DNA from: Chloropicon primus
Lineage: Eukaryota
Direction of reading: 5' to 3'
Assembly: GCA_023205875.1 (NCBI GenBank)
Contig: CP060757.1
Location: forward strand, 744,001-808,000
Length of the DNA: 64,000 nucleotides
Below, piece after piece: positions 11,151 through 43,437 of the stretch. Made by a program: the position numbers and the translations under genes. A model generated the notes under the pieces. It had not been told where the DNA came from, ran no database searches, and saw only the letters and a program-made list of their open reading frames with translations. Positions within the stretch are counted from its first letter, which is position 1. Each line of letters begins with the position of its first letter.

Positions 11151-11423
11151 CATGTCATGCATGTGATCCCCGAAAGCTACTTTCCGATTTTAATACAAGA
11201 CTTACCCTTAAGTGGGATTCTTTCCTCTCCCAATCTCTTCGCAGGACTAGAAGCAGGAGGAGGCCAAGACCGGAGAGCCGACGGAGCGGAGCGCGGGGTT
11301 GGAAGGCGAAGACGAAGGCACGATGACTCGAGATCCTGGTTCGACGGCGGTTAGGGCAGGGTCGCACTAATCATCGCGAGTGTTGTTGGTGTCGAGGCCA
11401 CCACGTGGTGGGAAGATCGAGCG

Positions 11424-12803
11424 ATGAGGAAGTCCTCGACCAAGCGAAAGGGTTCGAAATCCAGGCTCTTTGTCACGATGCTGTGCGCGTTGGCCACGGT
11501 TCTCATCATCGCGCCCCCCACTCCGATGGAGCTGCACATGCAAAACCGCGTCATCTACATCTCCAACAAGCAGTCGAGCCAACTGACTCCCCCGGACGCA
11601 GCGGGTCAAGTTGTCCCGGCAGCAGCAGACTCTGCTGCTGCGATGAGCGACGAAGTTGGGAAGGGAGCGGGAAGCGATCAGCTGCCGAGCAGCGACGGGG
11701 GGGACGCCGACGAGGACAAGGAGGATGCCGAGCCCGGGGCCGCGAGCGGCTACAAGAGGTGTCCCCGGACTATGGCGCCAGTGAGGCCAACGCTGGAGGG
11801 GTTGAGTTTGGACTTCAGGGTTGGCAGGCACGGGTTTAACATCAGCGACAGCTTTATCCACAAAGGGAACTACGAGCAGCTTTTGCGGGGTGACTACACT
11901 CTCCACCGCCACACCATACCCATGCTCCCCAAGTCATACGAAGACATCGCTGCCAACTACAAGTTCAACAGCTGCGCCGTCGTGGGGAGCAGTGGCTATA
12001 TGAAGCTGGCGCAGTTCGGAGCTGCGATAGACACGCACGACGTCGTGGTGCGGCTCAACCAATCGCCCACAAAGGCCTTCGCCAAGTGGGTCGGCACGAA
12101 AACGACGATGAGGATGCTGAACAGTTTGTGGAGCAACCACTACGGTGCCGGGAGATACGAGCCCATGGCCCTGCCGCTCGAAAACGATGTGACTCTCATC
12201 GTGTCAAGGACGACGGGGCATGCTTTTGACAAGATCGTGAAAACAATGAAGCAGAAGCGGCCGGACGTGAAGGTTCTCCAACTGAGCTCAAGGGTTGTCT
12301 CGGCAGCCAGGCGACTCCTGGTCCGATACAGGGTCAAGCTGTGCAAGGATGGTTACGGACCGTACAGCGGAGGAAGCACTCCCTCGTCTGGCTTCGTCGC
12401 CGTTTACTTCTTGCGCACAATCTGCAAGCGCGTGACCCTGTACGGTCTGGGAACTGTGAACATTCCCGATGTACCATATCACTATTTCACTGGGGTGGGA
12501 AGCAGGCAGAAGGGTAACTCGGTGCACTCGTTTGATTCCGAAAGTGCTACGCTCGATGCTCTCGCGTTCGAGGACAAGATCGAGCAGTGCAAGTACCGGA
12601 CGAGGGACATCGTTCCTCACGGAAACCAAATCCTGTCGAACTTGAGGACGAACTTCACACTCCTCCAGGATCACAGATACAACAACAGGTTCTGCGGCTG
12701 GAATTTGTGCAACCGGAGGGGGTACAAGAAGCTGGGAGAAATGGTAGGCGTGGCGAGAGAAATCAATTACGCCGATTGCAGGAAGATCATGTACAATGAA
12801 TAG
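11424..12803 (+). CDS. GT29 sialyltransferase-like glycosyltransferase (type II membrane), copy 1
   Basis: N-terminal TM; sialylmotif L (CAVVGSSG..IDTHDVVVRLN), S (PSSGFVAV..C.RVTLYG), III (YHYF), VS (HSFDSE). Confidence 0.9.
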   Translation: MRKSSTKRKGSKSRLFVTMLCALATVLIIAPPTPMELHMQNRVIYISNKQSSQLTPPDAAGQVVPAAADSAAAMSDEVGKGAGSDQLPSSDGGDADEDKEDAEPGAASGYKRCPRTMAPVRPTLEGLSLDFRVGRHGFNISDSFIHKGNYEQLLRGDYTLHRHTIPMLPKSYEDIAANYKFNSCAVVGSSGYMKLAQFGAAIDTHDVVVRLNQSPTKAFAKWVGTKTTMRMLNSLWSNHYGAGRYEPMALPLENDVTLIVSRTTGHAFDKIVKTMKQKRPDVKVLQLSSRVVSAARRLLVRYRVKLCKDGYGPYSGGSTPSSGFVAVYFLRTICKRVTLYGLGTVNIPDVPYHYFTGVGSRQKGNSVHSFDSESATLDALAFEDKIEQCKYRTRDIVPHGNQILSNLRTNFTLLQDHRYNNRFCGWNLCNRRGYKKLGEMVGVAREINYADCRKIMYNE

Positions 12804-14526
12804 GCCAAGAAGCCTTCGCCCCCCTCCACTGTATTATACTTTGAACCATCCCCATGTGCCCATGTCCCGAAATCAATCCCCCTCCGATCCCTCTCCACAA
12901 AACTGCCTCCATTCCACGAATGAACCGCAGGGAGAAGAAGGAGAAGAGGAGGAAGCAGCAGCAGGCCAAGTCTCGAAGCAGCCTTGGTCCAATGGGCACA
13001 ACATGAATCTAAATGGGGACAGGAGACCTTTGTCCGTGAAACTGTTTGTGCTTTGCGTGATACTCGTGGCGTTCACCGTTCTACTGGCTCCTTTCAGGCC
13101 TTCTTCACCAAAGCCAAAGGTGCTGGCTGGCTTGGATGCCACAGTGAAAGAGCGAGTGGAGGAGGTGCAGATCGAGGGAGTTGGCGCCAGCAGCCTGCAG
13201 GGTGGCGATGCCTTGAAGTTAGCAGAGACGGTTGAGCTCCAAGACGAGGATCTTGCGGAGGATGAAGAGGAGCAGCAAGAGGAGCAGCAGGAAATCAAGG
13301 CGATTAACAAGTGGGAAGACTGCTCGGACGTGAAGGCAGATGCGAGACCGACGCTTGAGGGCATCCCCTTGTTCTTCACGGACGAGAATGACAATCTCAA
13401 TTACGACGACGTCTTTATCCACAAGAAAAACTACAAGCGGTTTTGGGCTCGGGGCAGTTACGTCGTCGACAACGACACCATCGCCACGCTGCCGAGCTCG
13501 CACGAAGAGATAATTGGGTATCACAAGTTCAACAGCTGTGCAGTCGTTGGAAACAGCGGTTACCTCAGGTTTACTGAGTTCGGTGATGCCATCGACACGC
13601 ATGACGTCGTCTTGCGTCTGAATCAGGCACCCACAAAGAAGTTTTCGAAGTGGGTGGGCACCAAGACATCCATACGGCTTATCAATAACCTTTGGAGCAT
13701 CAGGTACGGCTCGGAACGGGACTTTGGCAAGATCCCCTTGGAGAAGAACCTGACCCTGGTCGTGTCCAGGACACGGGGTTTTGTTTTTGACAACATCGTC
13801 AAATTCTTGGGCGAGAAGCGGCCTGACGTCAAGGTGGTTCGGCTGAACTCAAGGATGGTCTCAGCCTCGAGGAGACTGCTTGTGGCGTACAGAGTCAAGA
13901 TGTGCAAGGATGGCTACAAGTACGAGGGAGGAATTTCGCCGACTTCTGGATTCGTTGGCACGTACATTCTTCGCATGCTCTGCAAGCGGGTGACCTTGTA
14001 TGGTCTTGGAATGGTCAAGTCCAGGGCGGTGCCGTACCATTACATGACGGGAACGATCGGAGCGAGGACGGCGCCCACGTCAGTACACTCCTTCCCGGCT
14101 GAAAGCGCTACGCTGGATGCTCTTGCATTCGAGAACAAGATCGAGCAGTGCAAGTATCGCGAAAAGGCTTACATTGCCCGCCCAGGCGAAAGCGTATCAA
14201 ACTTGAGGAGCAACTTTACGGTCTTAAACTACGCCGCCCACAACAATCATTACTGTGGGTGGAACGTGTGTCACCACAGACGCTACTGGCGGTTCTGGCG
14301 CAGGGTCATTAAGGAAAGCTTGCCTTTTGGAGGGAAAGACGTGCCTTACAAGGACTGTTGGAGGGTAATGTTTTCGGACATCGATGTGCCACCCGGAAAG
14401 GCTGAGAAGGCCCAGGAGGAGGAGAAGCAGGCCCAGGAGGAGGAGGAGCAGGCGCTTGAGGAGGAGGAGACGCAGCAAGCGCTGGAGGCGCTGAAGGAGG
14501 AGGAGGAGGAGGAGGAGGAGGTATAG
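12796..14526 (+). CDS. GT29 sialyltransferase-like glycosyltransferase, copy 2 (true start may be ATG 13003)
   Basis: TM; CAVVGNSG..IDTHDVVLRLN, PTSGFVG..C.RVTLYG, YHY, HSFPAE; colinear paralog of the upstream gene; Glu-rich tail. Confidence 0.88.
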   Translation: MNRPRSLRPPPLYYTLNHPHVPMSRNQSPSDPSPQNCLHSTNEPQGEEGEEEEAAAGQVSKQPWSNGHNMNLNGDRRPLSVKLFVLCVILVAFTVLLAPFRPSSPKPKVLAGLDATVKERVEEVQIEGVGASSLQGGDALKLAETVELQDEDLAEDEEEQQEEQQEIKAINKWEDCSDVKADARPTLEGIPLFFTDENDNLNYDDVFIHKKNYKRFWARGSYVVDNDTIATLPSSHEEIIGYHKFNSCAVVGNSGYLRFTEFGDAIDTHDVVLRLNQAPTKKFSKWVGTKTSIRLINNLWSIRYGSERDFGKIPLEKNLTLVVSRTRGFVFDNIVKFLGEKRPDVKVVRLNSRMVSASRRLLVAYRVKMCKDGYKYEGGISPTSGFVGTYILRMLCKRVTLYGLGMVKSRAVPYHYMTGTIGARTAPTSVHSFPAESATLDALAFENKIEQCKYREKAYIARPGESVSNLRSNFTVLNYAAHNNHYCGWNVCHHRRYWRFWRRVIKESLPFGGKDVPYKDCWRVMFSDIDVPPGKAEKAQEEEKQAQEEEEQALEEEETQQALEALKEEEEEEEEV

Positions 14527-34672: not shown

Positions 34673-36235
34673 CTAACCTCAGCAACCACGCTTTGTGGGG
34701 TCCATACCCGAGCTCCTTGTCACCTTCAGCATGGTGAACTCCTCTGCGACGGTGGGGTGGATTCCCACCGTGTCATCGAAGTCCGCTTTGGTTGCTTTCA
34801 TTTTGACGGCTACCGCAAAGCCCTGAATGACCTCGCCCGCGTGGGGCCCGACATAATGAAGGCCAATGACCCGCTCGTTCTCCTCCTTGAGGGTGATCAT
34901 CTTGAAGAAAACGCTGTTGTCCTCGCGGTGCTCGACGCCTTTCTTGGCGTCATGGAACTCCTGGTTAGTTTTCCACTCCAAGGGCCTCAGGAAAGAGAGG
35001 TAGATCTCTAGCTTGTCCATGCCATACGTCTCCACGGCGAGCTCCTCAGACATTCCAACGCAGCCGTATTCCAAAGGCGTGAACACTGTGGTGGGAACCT
35101 CCAGGTAGTCCATCTTGAACTCGGGTCTGCCTCCGAACAGCCTGTCCGCAAGGCGCTCCCCAGACTTGATCGCCACAGGGGTGAGCTCCTGACGCGTGTC
35201 CACCGCATCTCCAATGGCGAATATGTTTCTCGTGCTCGTCTGGTCGTACTCGTCCACGTAAACCTTCCCCGTCTTCTCGTTGAGCTTGATGCCAGCTGCA
35301 TCGAGGTTGACCTCCGTCGTGCAAGCGTCCCTGCCCACGGCAAGAAGGACGGTGTCAAAGTACTCGGTCGTCTCGAACTCAAAGTCCAGGTTCTTGTACG
35401 TGCAGGCGATCATACCGTGGTTGGGGCTGCTCTCGTCTTCGACCTTCTCGAACTTGACCGGAACGCAGCGCTTTATAATCTTCGTGCCGTGCCTCTCCAT
35501 GTAGGAGCCGATGTGCTCCGCCACTTCCTGATCGAAGCCACGGAGAAAGATGGACCTCGCCATGACGTAAGTGTCGTATCCGAAAGCCGTCAAAAAGCCG
35601 GCGCACTCCAGGGCTATGTAACTCGCCCCCACGACGAGCGTCTTCCCCGGCGATTTCTGGAGGGAGAAGATGTCATCGCTCGTGATGCACAGCTCCTTGT
35701 CTCCGGGGACGCCGAGATACCTCGGCCTACCACCAGGGGCGAACACGATGTACTCCCCCGTGATGTTCTTCTTCTCCCCTCTCTTGTTCGTGCACTCGAT
35801 CGTGTGCTCGTCCACGAAGACGCCAAACTCGTTCTTGTAATCAACGCTCTGCTCCCTCAGCTCCGTCCTGTACCCGAAGTTGAGGCCCCTGACGTAGTTC
35901 TGCACAGACATCACGAGTGTCTCCCAGTCGTGGGTTGGGTGTTCCTTGCCGTCCTCCTTGCCGAAAGTCGTCCAGCCCAGGGACCTCGCGTCACCGGCGG
36001 ACTCGCCGAGCAGGGCACCGTAGTGCATGAGCTTCTTAGGGATGCAGCCCACGTTCACGCACGTTCCTCCGAGGCCCCACTTGGTCCCGTAAGGCGAGGG
36101 TTTCACGAAGTCGAGAAGGGTCACCTTCTTCCCGTGCTTCGCGCAACGCTTCGCGCACGCAAGGCCTCCGCTCCCCCCTCCCACGACGATCACATCGTAG
36201 TCGTACGAACCGGACCCCCCCTCCGATGATCCCAT
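34673..36235 (-). CDS. High-molecular-weight (animal-type) selenoprotein thioredoxin reductase
   Basis: GGGSGG, GGTCVNVGCIPKK, HPTVAE; 3' end GGT TGC TGA GGT TAG = Gly-Cys-Sec-Gly-stop. Confidence 0.93.
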
Positions 36236-39511: not shown

Positions 39512-41644
39512 ATGGAGGAGGGGTTCCTGCAAAGGCTGTTCCCCCGGGGAGAAGGGGATGGGCACTACAGGTAATCTAAGAGTCACGAGGGACTTGTTCT
39601 GTGAACACGAAGCGTGGGGAGTTCTCAGAACCAGTAACAACCATCGTGGACACCTAACCCTCGAGGGGGTAAATCAATAAACTGACAGGTGTGTGTTTGT
39701 GTTTGTTGCTCGATAGAACGGCGGCATACTCGAAGCTGTACAACGTTCTCTGTCCGCCTCAGCCCAATTTGCGTGAAATAGCCCAAGGTTTTGCCCTCTC
39801 AAAAGAGAAATCAAAAGGTAAGCGCGAGAGTGCAGAGGCGAGGCAATGGGATGTGTTCCTGACTCTTTCCACTTGTGGTGCACAGCGAACGTTTGGGAGA
39901 GCTTCCTGGATGCCCCAAGCGATCTGGCCGGAGGGTCTTCTGGAAAGGAAGGAAATTCGCTTGACAAAGCCTCGGAGGGAGACGACCAAGGCTCAAGCCA
40001 GCACGCGCCCGTTAGAACTGTGCGGGGCTTTGAGGCCACTTCCAGCAGCAACAGCGCTACGAGCAGTGGCGACCAACTCGAAAGGAAGAAGGAGACGGAC
40101 CAGTCCGAGCTGAGCATCGGTTTCTTTCGAAGGAAAAAGGTAGTGAAAATATCCTTGACCACTGCGTTGGATTGTGCTTTCCGATGACTGACAACGCGTT
40201 TTGGTTTCGACAACAGCTACGAGTCGTGCTGTTTGCAGCGAGACTCCATGCTGACAAGGCTGGAAATAAGAGGGATGTCATGGAATTCCAAGTGGATGCG
40301 GACAGAACTTTGACAGCGAGCATGCTCACCCAGGTCATACTGGGAAAGATTAGCGCCAAGGACTACAAGGTGGACTTCACGGGCTATGAAGTGAGATTTC
40401 CGGATCGGGATGACGATGGCCTCAAGCCAGAAGAGGCCACGGCTGACACGACTTTGCCTCCTCTTGGCTTTCAGCAGCCAGTTTCCCAACTCAATAGCAA
40501 CATGTTTGTGATCACGGAGAGGCCCGTGAACAACAAAGCTCTCGCAATGAAGACAAGGGTATCCATAAACAGCTTTGAGAGAGACCGAAGCAGGTTCCCG
40601 ACTCTGTCCCAGCTGTCTCCAGAGGAGCTGGACGAGTACTTCAAGAAAAACACCCCAAAAGATTCCAAGAACCCAATCACGTGCATTGTGAAGCTGGCGA
40701 TATCCCCGCTGTGCACCAAGAAGCTGGTCGGCAGCATCGGAAGAAGCCTTCAGAGCTTTGCTGATTGCATCCCACAGAGCGTCGTCCTTCGTGCGGACAG
40801 CGGCATGACTGTCGAGGACCTCACCAAATTCTTCCTCGGCTCCCTGTGCAAGGGCTACGAGGAGCACTGGAAGGACTGGATGATCAGAAAGACAAAGGTG
40901 TCTGTGTTTGACACAGTGGACGAAAGGTGAGTCTCTCGCGCGGCCCGCCCCCTCGGCAGCATTTCTCTCTGGCGACCATCAAATCCTGACCTTCTTTTTT
41001 CTAGGTGCTCCTTTTGGATGCACCAGGGGAACAACCCGCTTGGAGAGGTTCTAGACACGGACGCCAAAGTCACAGATGTGGCGGCCTGGCAAACGATCGT
41101 GCTCCTTCCCCGAACGAGCAAATACGCTCTCGAGAAGAAGGCCTCGGAATCGCAGCGCGGAAAATCTGAGCAGCCCAAAGTCACGTACCTGTTCACCGAG
41201 CAGACGGCGAGCATGTACGTCGAGTACAACGTGGTGAAGTTCAATCGGTACGGGAAGAAGCAGGAGCGCATACTCGGAATCGACAGGGAGCAGATTTACA
41301 ACTTGCTGCCGAGGCTCCAGCTGGACGAGGACAGCATGGACATGGAGCTGACCGCCAGCGATCTCATCGAAGCGAAGGGCGCGAGCGCTGACTTGTCTGC
41401 CAAGTCCCTTGCCGCGAAGGTCTCGAGGGGATTGCTGCAGAGCACCACAAGCGAGACGAAGAAGCGCGTCAGGCAGGTCAACCAAGTCAAGAGCTGCGAG
41501 GTGAGCGGGGACAACAAGGCCGTTGGGTGCCTCCGCTACAAGGACGGGTCGACCTACAATTTCGAGTTTGAGAACGAGGACCTGTGTGCCGAGGCCGTGG
41601 CGAGAATCAACTACTTGGTGAAGTTGTGCACCGAGAGCCTGTAA
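39512..41644 (+). CDS. SIN1/Avo1/Rip3-like protein (CRIM-like, RBD-like, PH), 5 exons, 587 aa
   Basis: Exons 39512-39570, 39717-39817, 39886-40139, 40217-40926, 41005-41644 splice in frame at GT-AG with CTGAC branch points; YEVR..DDDG..D.TLPPL..PVSQ; YNVVKFNRYGKKQERILGIDREQIYN..YNFE..AEAVARINYL. Confidence 0.7.
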
Positions 41645-42288: not shown

Positions 42289-43437
42289 ATGACATCGCCA
42301 TCAGCAGGACGATCTACGATGTTGTGCGTTGCTGCCGCCCTTGTGGCCGTGCTCTCGAGCTCGGGGGCCCACGCGCAGATGAGCACGGCGGACGTGATGG
42401 AGAAGGCCCCGGTGTTCGGGGTGCCCGCCCTGACGCCCGAGGAATGCGGGGCCACGATCGAGAACTCCACGACCGACATGATCATCGCTTTCTCGTCGTG
42501 CCTAGCGACCGACTCCGCTTCCGAGGCCTGCTGCGGTGCCGTGCAGGACACGTTTGCCTTCGAGAACGAGAAGTTCGGGGGGTGCTTGTGCCACCCCGTC
42601 CTGATGAACACGGTGATGGAGCTGGCCGAGGGGTTCTTGCCGGGGTCCAAGGAGCTCATTCCCAGGGTTATGAACGACTGCGTCGATCCGGATGGGAACT
42701 ACTCTTCGTCCTTCCCGTTCTACGGGCAAGCCTCTGGGAGCGAGCAGTGCGATCCAAGCGTGCTCGTGAACACGGATGCCGTGGATCTCTCCGTGCTCGG
42801 AGAGCTCGCCCCCACCGTGGGCGCGCAGTCCAAGGACACCGAGGAGGAGGCGCCTGCCGCGGGCGGGTCAGACGCCCCTGACCAGGCGGACAGGAGAATG
42901 GACACGGCCCTCACCGTCTTCAGCGTCGTTGCCGCGGAGGACTGCGGCGCGAACTTGCAGAGCGGGAAGGGGGAGCTGATCGGAGCTCTGACGCCTTGCA
43001 TCATCGCCGAGGCGCCGACGCAAGAGTGCTGCAACGCGGTTGAGCAGGTGTTCAGACCGGACAACGAGAGGTTTGGAGGCTGCTTGTGCCACAAGGAGGT
43101 TATGGACGGCATCTTTGACGAGGCCGAGGGCTTCCTTCCTGGATCCACCGCCTTGATCGAGAACGCCTTCGAGGTCTGCACGAACGATTTTGGATCTCAG
43201 TTTTCCTTCCACGGCCAAAAGGTTGGGCACGTGGCGTGCTCCAGCGAGGACAAGCTCCAGGCTCCGAGCCTGAACCAGGCGGGCTCGAGCGGATCAGAGC
43301 AGGAGGAGGAGGGCCCAACCCTCCTGGGTGACTTGCAAAACATGTTTGGGTCGAGCTCTTCGGCGGCGAGCCCCGGCGCCGTCGCGTCCTACGCTCTCGT
43401 TGCCGCCTCGACCCTCGCGTACGCTTTCCTCCTCTAG
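42289..43437 (+). CDS. Secreted, probably GPI-anchored protein with two eight-cysteine (nsLTP/prolamin-like) domains
   Basis: Signal peptide; two C-C-CC-CLC-C-C repeats; Ser-rich omega region and hydrophobic C-terminus. Confidence 0.75.
   Translation: MTSPSAGRSTMLCVAAALVAVLSSSGAHAQMSTADVMEKAPVFGVPALTPEECGATIENSTTDMIIAFSSCLATDSASEACCGAVQDTFAFENEKFGGCLCHPVLMNTVMELAEGFLPGSKELIPRVMNDCVDPDGNYSSSFPFYGQASGSEQCDPSVLVNTDAVDLSVLGELAPTVGAQSKDTEEEAPAAGGSDAPDQADRRMDTALTVFSVVAAEDCGANLQSGKGELIGALTPCIIAEAPTQECCNAVEQVFRPDNERFGGCLCHKEVMDGIFDEAEGFLPGSTALIENAFEVCTNDFGSQFSFHGQKVGHVACSSEDKLQAPSLNQAGSSGSEQEEEGPTLLGDLQNMFGSSSSAASPGAVASYALVAASTLAYAFLL

Follow-up and report, generated by a model that had tools for sequence, protein, structure and literature searches.

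The green alga Chloropicon primus carries a gene for a protein of 587 amino acids that is almost certainly an orthologue of SIN1/Avo1 and is likely to serve as the SIN1 subunit of a divergent, working target of rapamycin complex 2 (TORC2) acquired by vertical descent. The gene was found on the forward strand of a stretch of 64,000 nucleotides of contig CP060757.1 (positions 744,001 to 808,000), here called the window. Homology to SIN1 and Avo1, which the initial annotation had proposed from the DNA letters, was confirmed by a PH domain detected both by Pfam and by fold comparison, by a CRIM domain recovered in profile-to-profile alignment and by the expected order of the domains.

The PH domain reached 36.6 bits against Pfam family SIN1_PH (PF16979) when exon 5 was searched and 32.6 bits for the full protein, with a cut-off of 27. 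The match falls into two stretches because an insertion splits the domain. Residues K453 and R463 are each common to 67 of 68 aligned rows, and the K-x-E-R strand of the Chloropicon PH domain also occurs in yeast Avo1. When the structure model was compared with 48,161 chains, the human Sin1 PH domain (3voq) was the top match (Z 14.4, root-mean-square deviation (rmsd) 2.5, 102 aligned) and outranked the next PH domain by 1.0 Z.

Of the two Pfam domains anticipated for the spliced protein, only SIN1_PH exceeded its cut-off, but more sensitive profiles recovered CRIM as well. Alignment by hhalign identified it with a probability of 95.6% and an E value of 1.1e-8, the score of 47.6 comparing with no more than 24.1 when the columns were shuffled 100 times, and a hidden Markov model (HMM) built from 40 CRIM domains matched residues 162–242 of the protein at 12.0 bits. 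The consensus of the CRIM acidic loop is kept at D204-D205-G206, D215, P219 and L221, and the insertion in this loop brings other acidic residues. The CRIM structures 2rvk and 2ruj were not among the matches listed in either fold search, because PH domains filled the list. Exon 4 folded from its single sequence gave a predicted local distance difference test score (pLDDT) of 37.

The AlphaFold2 model, calculated with a 112-row alignment, has a mean pLDDT of 71.9 and a predicted template modelling score of 0.41, with three confident domains at about residues 137–239, 294–410 and 447–586. Helices are predicted with low confidence at residues 20–31 and 38–44, and pLDDT stays under 50 for residues 42–127. 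By its position alone, the segment encoded by exon 2 is a candidate for the part that anchors SIN1 to RICTOR and LST8. The model aligns to the Ras-binding domain (RBD) and PH domain of SIN1 (7lc1) over residues 292–587, approximately, with a two-domain rmsd of 11.6. No KEGG Orthology label for KRAS, HRAS or RHEB occurs in the 6,460 of 8,639 C. primus gene rows covered (PMC6731263), so another GTPase, or none at all, may be the partner of the middle domain. Membership in the FERM family was considered and rejected: a Foldseek search with the whole model put talin FERM first and SIN1 RBD-PH fourth, a ranking read as the common arrangement of a ubiquitin-like and a PH domain because the TM-scores were 0.13–0.17.

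Database searches showed that the closest remote relatives of the Chloropicon protein are SIN1 proteins. When 1.84 billion proteins were searched with a profile of four Chloropicon-like proteins, 304 matched at E ≤ 0.001, and a domain scan (E ≤ 0.01) of 65 of the longer proteins among the 150 matches listed detected SIN1_PH in 59, CRIM in 53, both in 51 and neither in 4. Named matches include the annotated MAPKAP1 of Anaeramoeba. The three best feature matches in an atlas were SIN1 clusters (0.91, 0.88 and 0.85), with all structure scores below the atlas bar. Other searches yielded less: phmmer with exons 4 and 5 produced chance matches only among PDB sequences, the four-sequence profile reached the Avo1 PH domain only at E 0.21, a second word-index search returned 15 proteins, all Chloropicon-like, and a search with the Chlorokybus SIN1 as query found nothing but itself. 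A 112-sequence profile matched MAPKAP1 at 1e-31; this match was set aside as evidence for the Chloropicon protein because non-green SIN1 rows dominate the profile.

The protein shares with human SIN1/MAPKAP1, a subunit of mTORC2, the succession of N-terminal segment, CRIM, a domain at the RBD position and C-terminal PH domain; the CRIM loop motifs can be aligned and the human PH domain is the best fold match. In contrast to human SIN1, to whose PH domain it is 18% identical, it has a PH domain split by about 40 residues, a CRIM loop with an insertion and a Thr for a conserved Asp, and lacks Pfam matches to PF05422, CRIM and RBD_SIN1. The PH folds of yeast Avo1 and fission yeast Sin1 (3ulb, 3ulc; CRIM 2rvk) are likewise similar (Z 12.0–12.2, rmsd 1.7–1.8, 25% identity), and the K-x-E-R motif is shared with Avo1, whereas the Chloropicon protein is shorter, lacks the long extensions of Avo1 and has a divergent acidic loop. 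Its closest sequence neighbourhood is formed by Dictyostelium RIP3 and protist SIN1 proteins (Diphylleia, Anaeramoeba, Muranothrix, oomycetes), with which it shares the lead F-T-E-x-T-A-S-x-Y-x-E-Y into the PH domain and a GIDRE motif; a RIP3 HMM was scored as present in C. primus (PMC8245530, here and below cited from its accessible parts). Unlike the Chloropicon protein, these relatives mostly have a clear Pfam CRIM match and often RBD or RA matches.

The coding sequence consists of five exons (Table 1) which join into a frame of 1764 nucleotides with a single terminal stop; each of the four canonical introns contains a CTRAC-type branch motif 20–36 nucleotides upstream of the acceptor. This exon structure and the motifs quoted for its product were predicted correctly by the initial annotation, as the spliced product is letter-for-letter identical to the C. 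primus protein QDZ20640.1/UPQ99852.1 (locus tags A3770_04p31580/HOP50_04g31620; UniRef100_A0A5B8MMV8). The gene is not cryptic, as had been assumed, because an annotated gene model already exists. NCBI names its product a hypothetical protein and UniRef a "Sin1 middle CRIM domain-containing protein". The average RNA-seq depth of the gene in a normalized library is 2.8, above the expression threshold of 1.0 (PMC6731263).

A metagenome contig (L002) carries a syntenic orthologue, a SIN1 very similar to protein P0006 of C. roscoffensis. Five neighbours of SIN1 keep their order and strands between the window and L002: a thioredoxin-reductase-like protein (91% identity), a PALP enzyme (75%) and GDI/REP (58%) precede SIN1, and a lipid-transfer-protein-like gene (70%) and a short open reading frame (ORF, 84%) follow it. 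Introns 1–3 have common positions and phases (codon 20, phase 2; codon 54, phase 1; codons 138–139, phase 0), and splicing is independently supported since the orthologue shares these introns and reads through the site of intron 4. The two SIN1 genes encode 62% identical residues over 582 aligned codons, with 0.32 nonsynonymous (dN) and 1.49 synonymous (dS) substitutions per site and a dN/dS of about 0.2 (NG86; dS is close to saturation). Identity rises to 88% in the first PH block, 81% over 36 residues of the exon 2 segment and 70% in the N-terminal 53 residues. The gene is thus conserved in a syntenic orthologue and under purifying selection. Its GC content at third codon positions (0.72) lies inside the range of eight neighbours (0.66–0.98), and plant-type genes in the window include a ferrochelatase with a long N-terminal extension, an ORF of the alternative oxidase family and DUF92. 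The same SIN1 protein is present on two contigs of up to 1.47 Mb, and WZN64281.1 is the C. roscoffensis orthologue.

Intron 4 is absent from the relative (L002:6021-7469), which indicates a recent gain or loss; P0004 and P0005 apparently retain an in-frame intron at this junction and P0028 is without it. At least four more Chloropicon-like SIN1 lineages with 39–63% identity occur in metagenomes (P0003, P0028, P0030–P0035, P0038), so SIN1 is widespread in the Chloropicon group.

SIN1 proteins were also identified in other Archaeplastida. P0123, from the streptophyte Chlorokybus atmophyticus (EukProt, jgi Chlat1|6620), scored 43.7 bits for CRIM, above the Pfam cut-off, and 26.7 bits for SIN1_PH, just below it; the usual lead-in to the PH domain is missing, and the gene model may be mis-spliced before this domain. 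P0088, from Rhodelphis limneticus (EukProt), a member of the predatory sister group of red algae, scored 39.4 bits for CRIM and 40.0 bits for PH. Both resemble the Chloropicon protein in combining the two domains, with a CRIM canonical enough for Pfam as the difference; Chlorokybus SIN1 is 29% identical to it over the PH domain. The unnamed protein P0095 is sister of the Rhodelphis SIN1. Among 20 matches looked up by name, Diphylleia, Muranothrix and Anaeramoeba were also represented and most were nameless. BLASTP of the gene had returned Klebsormidium GAQ80110.1 at 8e-15 and, at E ≤ 1e-10, no match in 12 other green algae (PMC6731263); GAQ80110.1 is a candidate SIN1 of this terrestrial streptophyte alga.

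A tree was calculated with IQ-TREE from 66 rows and 278 columns; the rows were picked by similarity to Chloropicon, and fragments, P0092 (no PH domain) and the near-duplicates P0040 and P0197 were left out. The Chloropicon-like rows held together with 100/100 on a stem of 1.6 changes per column. One branch separates four Chloropicon-like rows, Chlorokybus and six unnamed rows from the remainder (ultrafast bootstrap 87, SH-aLRT 79), and received 0.918 in FastTree and 81 in a quick tree. A short signature in the PH loop occurs in 13 of 13 rows of this group, which was defined post hoc, and in 6 of 55 rows outside. The grouping with Chlorokybus has moderate support; the backbone is unresolved and the tree alone does not exclude transfer. 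The initial annotation had left open whether SIN1 was kept or reacquired; the Chlorokybus SIN1 and the scattered presence in chlorophytes and streptophytes favour kept.

The case for a complex depends on second-hand RICTOR scores in two supplements. Table S1 of a 2025 survey gives RICTOR HMM scores to C. primus (193.2), C. roscoffensis (186) and Cymbomonas (342.2), and a SIN1 score of 109.3 to Cymbomonas; these green RICTOR scores are nevertheless called NA, though the rubric rates 150–300 as medium and >300 as high (PMC12467227). None of the 48 other chlorophyte rows in part 6 of this table has a RICTOR or SIN1 score, every score in the Klebsormidium row is blank, and Chlorokybus, Mesostigma, Prasinoderma, Rhodelphis, Cyanophora and Nephroselmis are not among its species (PMC12467227). 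In Supplementary Table 2 of Bock et al. 2021 a PiaA/RICTOR HMM is "present" in 7 of the 17 green algal datasets listed (C. primus, C. laureae, Crustomastix, Cymbomonas tetramitiformis, two Dolichomastix and Pterosperma) and a RIP3/SIN1 HMM in 4 of them (C. primus, C. tetramitiformis and two Dolichomastix); the accessible main text makes no mention of TORC2, pianissimo or rapamycin (PMC8245530).

TOR (A3770_10p60410) and LST8 (A3770_02p17500) are listed for C. primus (PMC6731263) and also have high scores in PMC12467227; RAPTOR, S6K (A3770_09p55040) and PDK1 are listed too (PMC6731263). Labels for RICTOR, K08267 and K20410 are missing from the gene rows covered and from files 1–12 (PMC6731263), which is uninformative because the SIN1 gene is itself unlabelled in the same table. 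The SGK2-labelled kinase A3770_01p03220 matches Klebsormidium GAQ80193.1 at E 0 and other algae far more weakly, with an RNA depth of 0 (PMC6731263). It is a candidate TORC2 substrate; this Klebsormidium-biased pattern resembles that of SIN1. None of the 97 other long ORFs of the window was recognised as a TOR-pathway gene.

In yeast and human SIN1, the N-terminal part runs along RICTOR and LST8, CRIM recruits the AGC kinase and the PH domain targets the membrane (PMC5745459, PMC5340527, both cited from accessible parts). By analogy, we propose that Chloropicon SIN1 is a likely subunit of a divergent TORC2 that came down from early green plants by vertical inheritance. Its N-terminal segment would tie it to RICTOR, TOR and LST8, a plasma-membrane phosphoinositide would be the ligand of its PH domain, and an AGC kinase brought in by the acidic loop of CRIM would be phosphorylated by TOR. 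Ras binding may have been lost from the middle domain, which retains an RBD-like position and predicted fold. The complex might serve to control membrane and actin, perhaps in connection with bacterivory or with a life stage not yet seen; a flagellate stage of that kind may exist in C. primus. Phago-mixotrophy is predicted for C. primus (0.707), with values of 0.002–0.109 for C. roscoffensis strains (PMC8245530); a link of SIN1 to feeding is speculative because C. roscoffensis scores low yet carries SIN1. On this view, several losses of TORC2 within green plants would take the place of a single loss at the base of Archaeplastida.

A number of observations weigh against this interpretation. The fold match to human Sin1 is not independent of the sequence evidence, because the alignment behind the model is rich in SIN1 rows. 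Pfam CRIM (PF16978), SIN1 (PF05422) and RBD matched none of five Chloropicon-like proteins, and one of 2001 control sequences, shuffled or reversed, reached the 12.0 bits of the CRIM HMM. CRIM position 217 is Thr, compared with Asp in 54 of 68 aligned rows; as this Thr replaces a key acidic residue and the loop carries an insertion, the predicted substrate site is altered. Acidic residues in the loop's second half matter most for binding of the substrate kinase in fission yeast (accessible part of PMC5340527). The Ras-binding domain named in the initial annotation is retained in position and in the predicted model, but a sequence profile gave no signal for it (14.2 versus 14.5 in shuffles). 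The RNA depth of the gene is well under those of TOR (18.2), LST8 (17.3) and RAPTOR (27.6) (PMC6731263). Support for the green group, defined after the first tree, is moderate and below the starred threshold; several of its rows are long or of unusual composition, and Rhodelphis branches apart. The support for RICTOR consists of second-hand published scores, and 193 bits is weak against the 804.9 of an oomycete row (PMC12467227). Johnson et al. dropped unexpected green matches, often contaminants or without aligned domains (PMC12467227), and either reason may apply to the Chloropicon score. Complex and substrate of the Chloropicon protein are predictions by analogy.

Part of these observations would also suit a vertically inherited SIN1 that works outside canonical TORC2, beside a degenerate RICTOR, either by itself as an adaptor at the membrane or with a changed set of substrates. 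The very long stem branch, the Thr in the CRIM loop, the insertions in CRIM, RBD and PH, an RBD not recognisable by sequence, the low RICTOR score in PMC12467227, the missing KRAS, HRAS and RHEB labels and the SGK2-labelled kinase with its RNA depth of 0 all point this way. We nevertheless regard such uncoupling as unlikely: RICTOR-like and SIN1-like matches co-occur in C. primus, Cymbomonas tetramitiformis and both Dolichomastix datasets (PMC8245530), the 2025 survey never found SIN1 without RICTOR (PMC12467227), losses of RICTOR and SIN1 were rate-dependent on all 28 trees (preprint 10.64898/2026.09.26.754375, accessible part), and the three domains and the N-terminal segment are all conserved between the window and L002. 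Another reading, in which green plants lost SIN1 early and a heterotrophic protist later passed it (and RICTOR) horizontally to the Chloropicophyceae, seems improbable. It would account for the lack of a homologue in 12 of the 13 green algal genomes compared, is compatible with the unresolved backbone and has a precedent in other transferred pathways reported in the C. primus genome (PMC6731263), but Chlorokybus SIN1, the Klebsormidium candidate and the Cymbomonas and Dolichomastix matches would need many separate transfers. Furthermore, the Chloropicon-like rows group with Chlorokybus, inside no strongly supported outside group, and the PH-loop signature runs through this post hoc group. That the gene is contaminating DNA, an assembly error or a frame spliced together by chance is scarcely conceivable. 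Contamination is the general ground on which PMC12467227 discards unexpected green matches; here it is excluded by a syntenic orthologue with shared introns and a dN/dS of about 0.2, and the two contigs, the C. roscoffensis orthologue, the plant-type neighbours and an RNA depth above the published threshold argue likewise against an artefact. The simplest account is that SIN1 descended vertically and was lost repeatedly, because the tree groups Chloropicon with Chlorokybus and SIN1 is scattered over chlorophytes and streptophytes.

Table 1. Features of the Chloropicon primus SIN1 gene (positions in the window)
Feature	Position	Strand	Description
Exon 1	39512..39570	+	aa 1-20; start codon at 39512; 59-nt length and phase matched in L002
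Intron 1	39571..39716	+	146 nt, GT-AG; branch motif at -36; position and phase same in L002
Exon 2	39717..39817	+	aa 20-54; conserved N-terminal segment, 2 predicted helices
Intron 2	39818..39885	+	68 nt, GT-AG; also in L002
Exon 3	39886..40139	+	aa 54-138; Ser-rich linker, predicted disordered; L002 identity 48%
Intron 3	40140..40216	+	77 nt, GT-AG; also in L002
Exon 4	40217..40926	+	aa 139-375; CRIM, linker, start of RBD-position domain
CRIM domain	40217..40534	+	aa about 137-244; substrate-recruiting domain in known SIN1 proteins
CRIM acidic loop	40403..40465	+	aa 201-221; 6-7 aa insertion
RBD-position domain	40676..41116	+	aa about 292-412; spans intron 4; two helical insertions
Intron 4	40927..41004	+	78 nt, GT-AG; missing in L002 orthologue
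Exon 5	41005..41644	+	aa 375-587; stop at 41642-41644
SIN1-type PH domain	41189..41638	+	aa 437-586; ~40-aa insertion at aa 482-521

Three further loci in the window deserve mention. A tandem pair of ORFs of the GT29 sialyltransferase family lies at 11355-12800 and 12748-14523 (+; 108 and 103.6 bits). The thioredoxin reductase at 34682-36232 (-), also present in L002, is of the animal (glutathione-reductase-like) type and ends in Gly-Cys followed by a stop, at which selenocysteine read-through is possible. At 42319-43434 (+), a secreted Cys-rich protein, kept in L001 and L002, has two weak lipid-transfer-protein-like repeats and a hydrophobic tail that is possibly a signal for a glycosylphosphatidylinositol anchor.

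The SIN1 family is well known; the location of this member contradicts a current published claim. Reviews and surveys from 2017 to 2026 describe plants and green algae as without TORC2 (PMC5745459, PMC9664231, PMC12858634, in their accessible parts), and the accessible part of a 2026 moss paper repeats this absence. The 2025 survey of more than 800 genomes placed the loss in the ancestor of Archaeplastida (PMC12467227). According to the accessible part of the 2026 preprint, RICTOR is absent in 13 of 14 chlorophytes, with one not assessable, and "largely absent" from Archaeplastida (10.64898/2026.09.26.754375); its supplements may score some archaeplastid as positive. In the literature searched, with most subscription journals outside the search, we came across no paper that credits a green alga with TORC2, none on RICTOR together with Chloropicon and none on RICTOR or TORC2 together with Chlorokybus or Rhodelphis. 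The 2021 table scores RICTOR and SIN1 of C. primus as "present", and the accessible parts of that paper never discuss them (PMC8245530). The raw signals in two supplements and the UniRef name lower the novelty of the finding and not the correction it brings.

A native, conserved SIN1 and RICTOR-like matches in the same species would shift the loss of TORC2 to several later branches, and the SIN1 of Rhodelphis is another archaeplastid exception. The finding fits the link between TORC2 and mixotrophy drawn in the 2025 survey (PMC12467227), because C. primus is predicted to be phago-mixotrophic. As a small, fully assembled and culturable green alga, C. primus would be a system for the role of TORC2 in a cell with a primary plastid, and Chloropicon lets one ask which TORC2 jobs land plants had to reassign.

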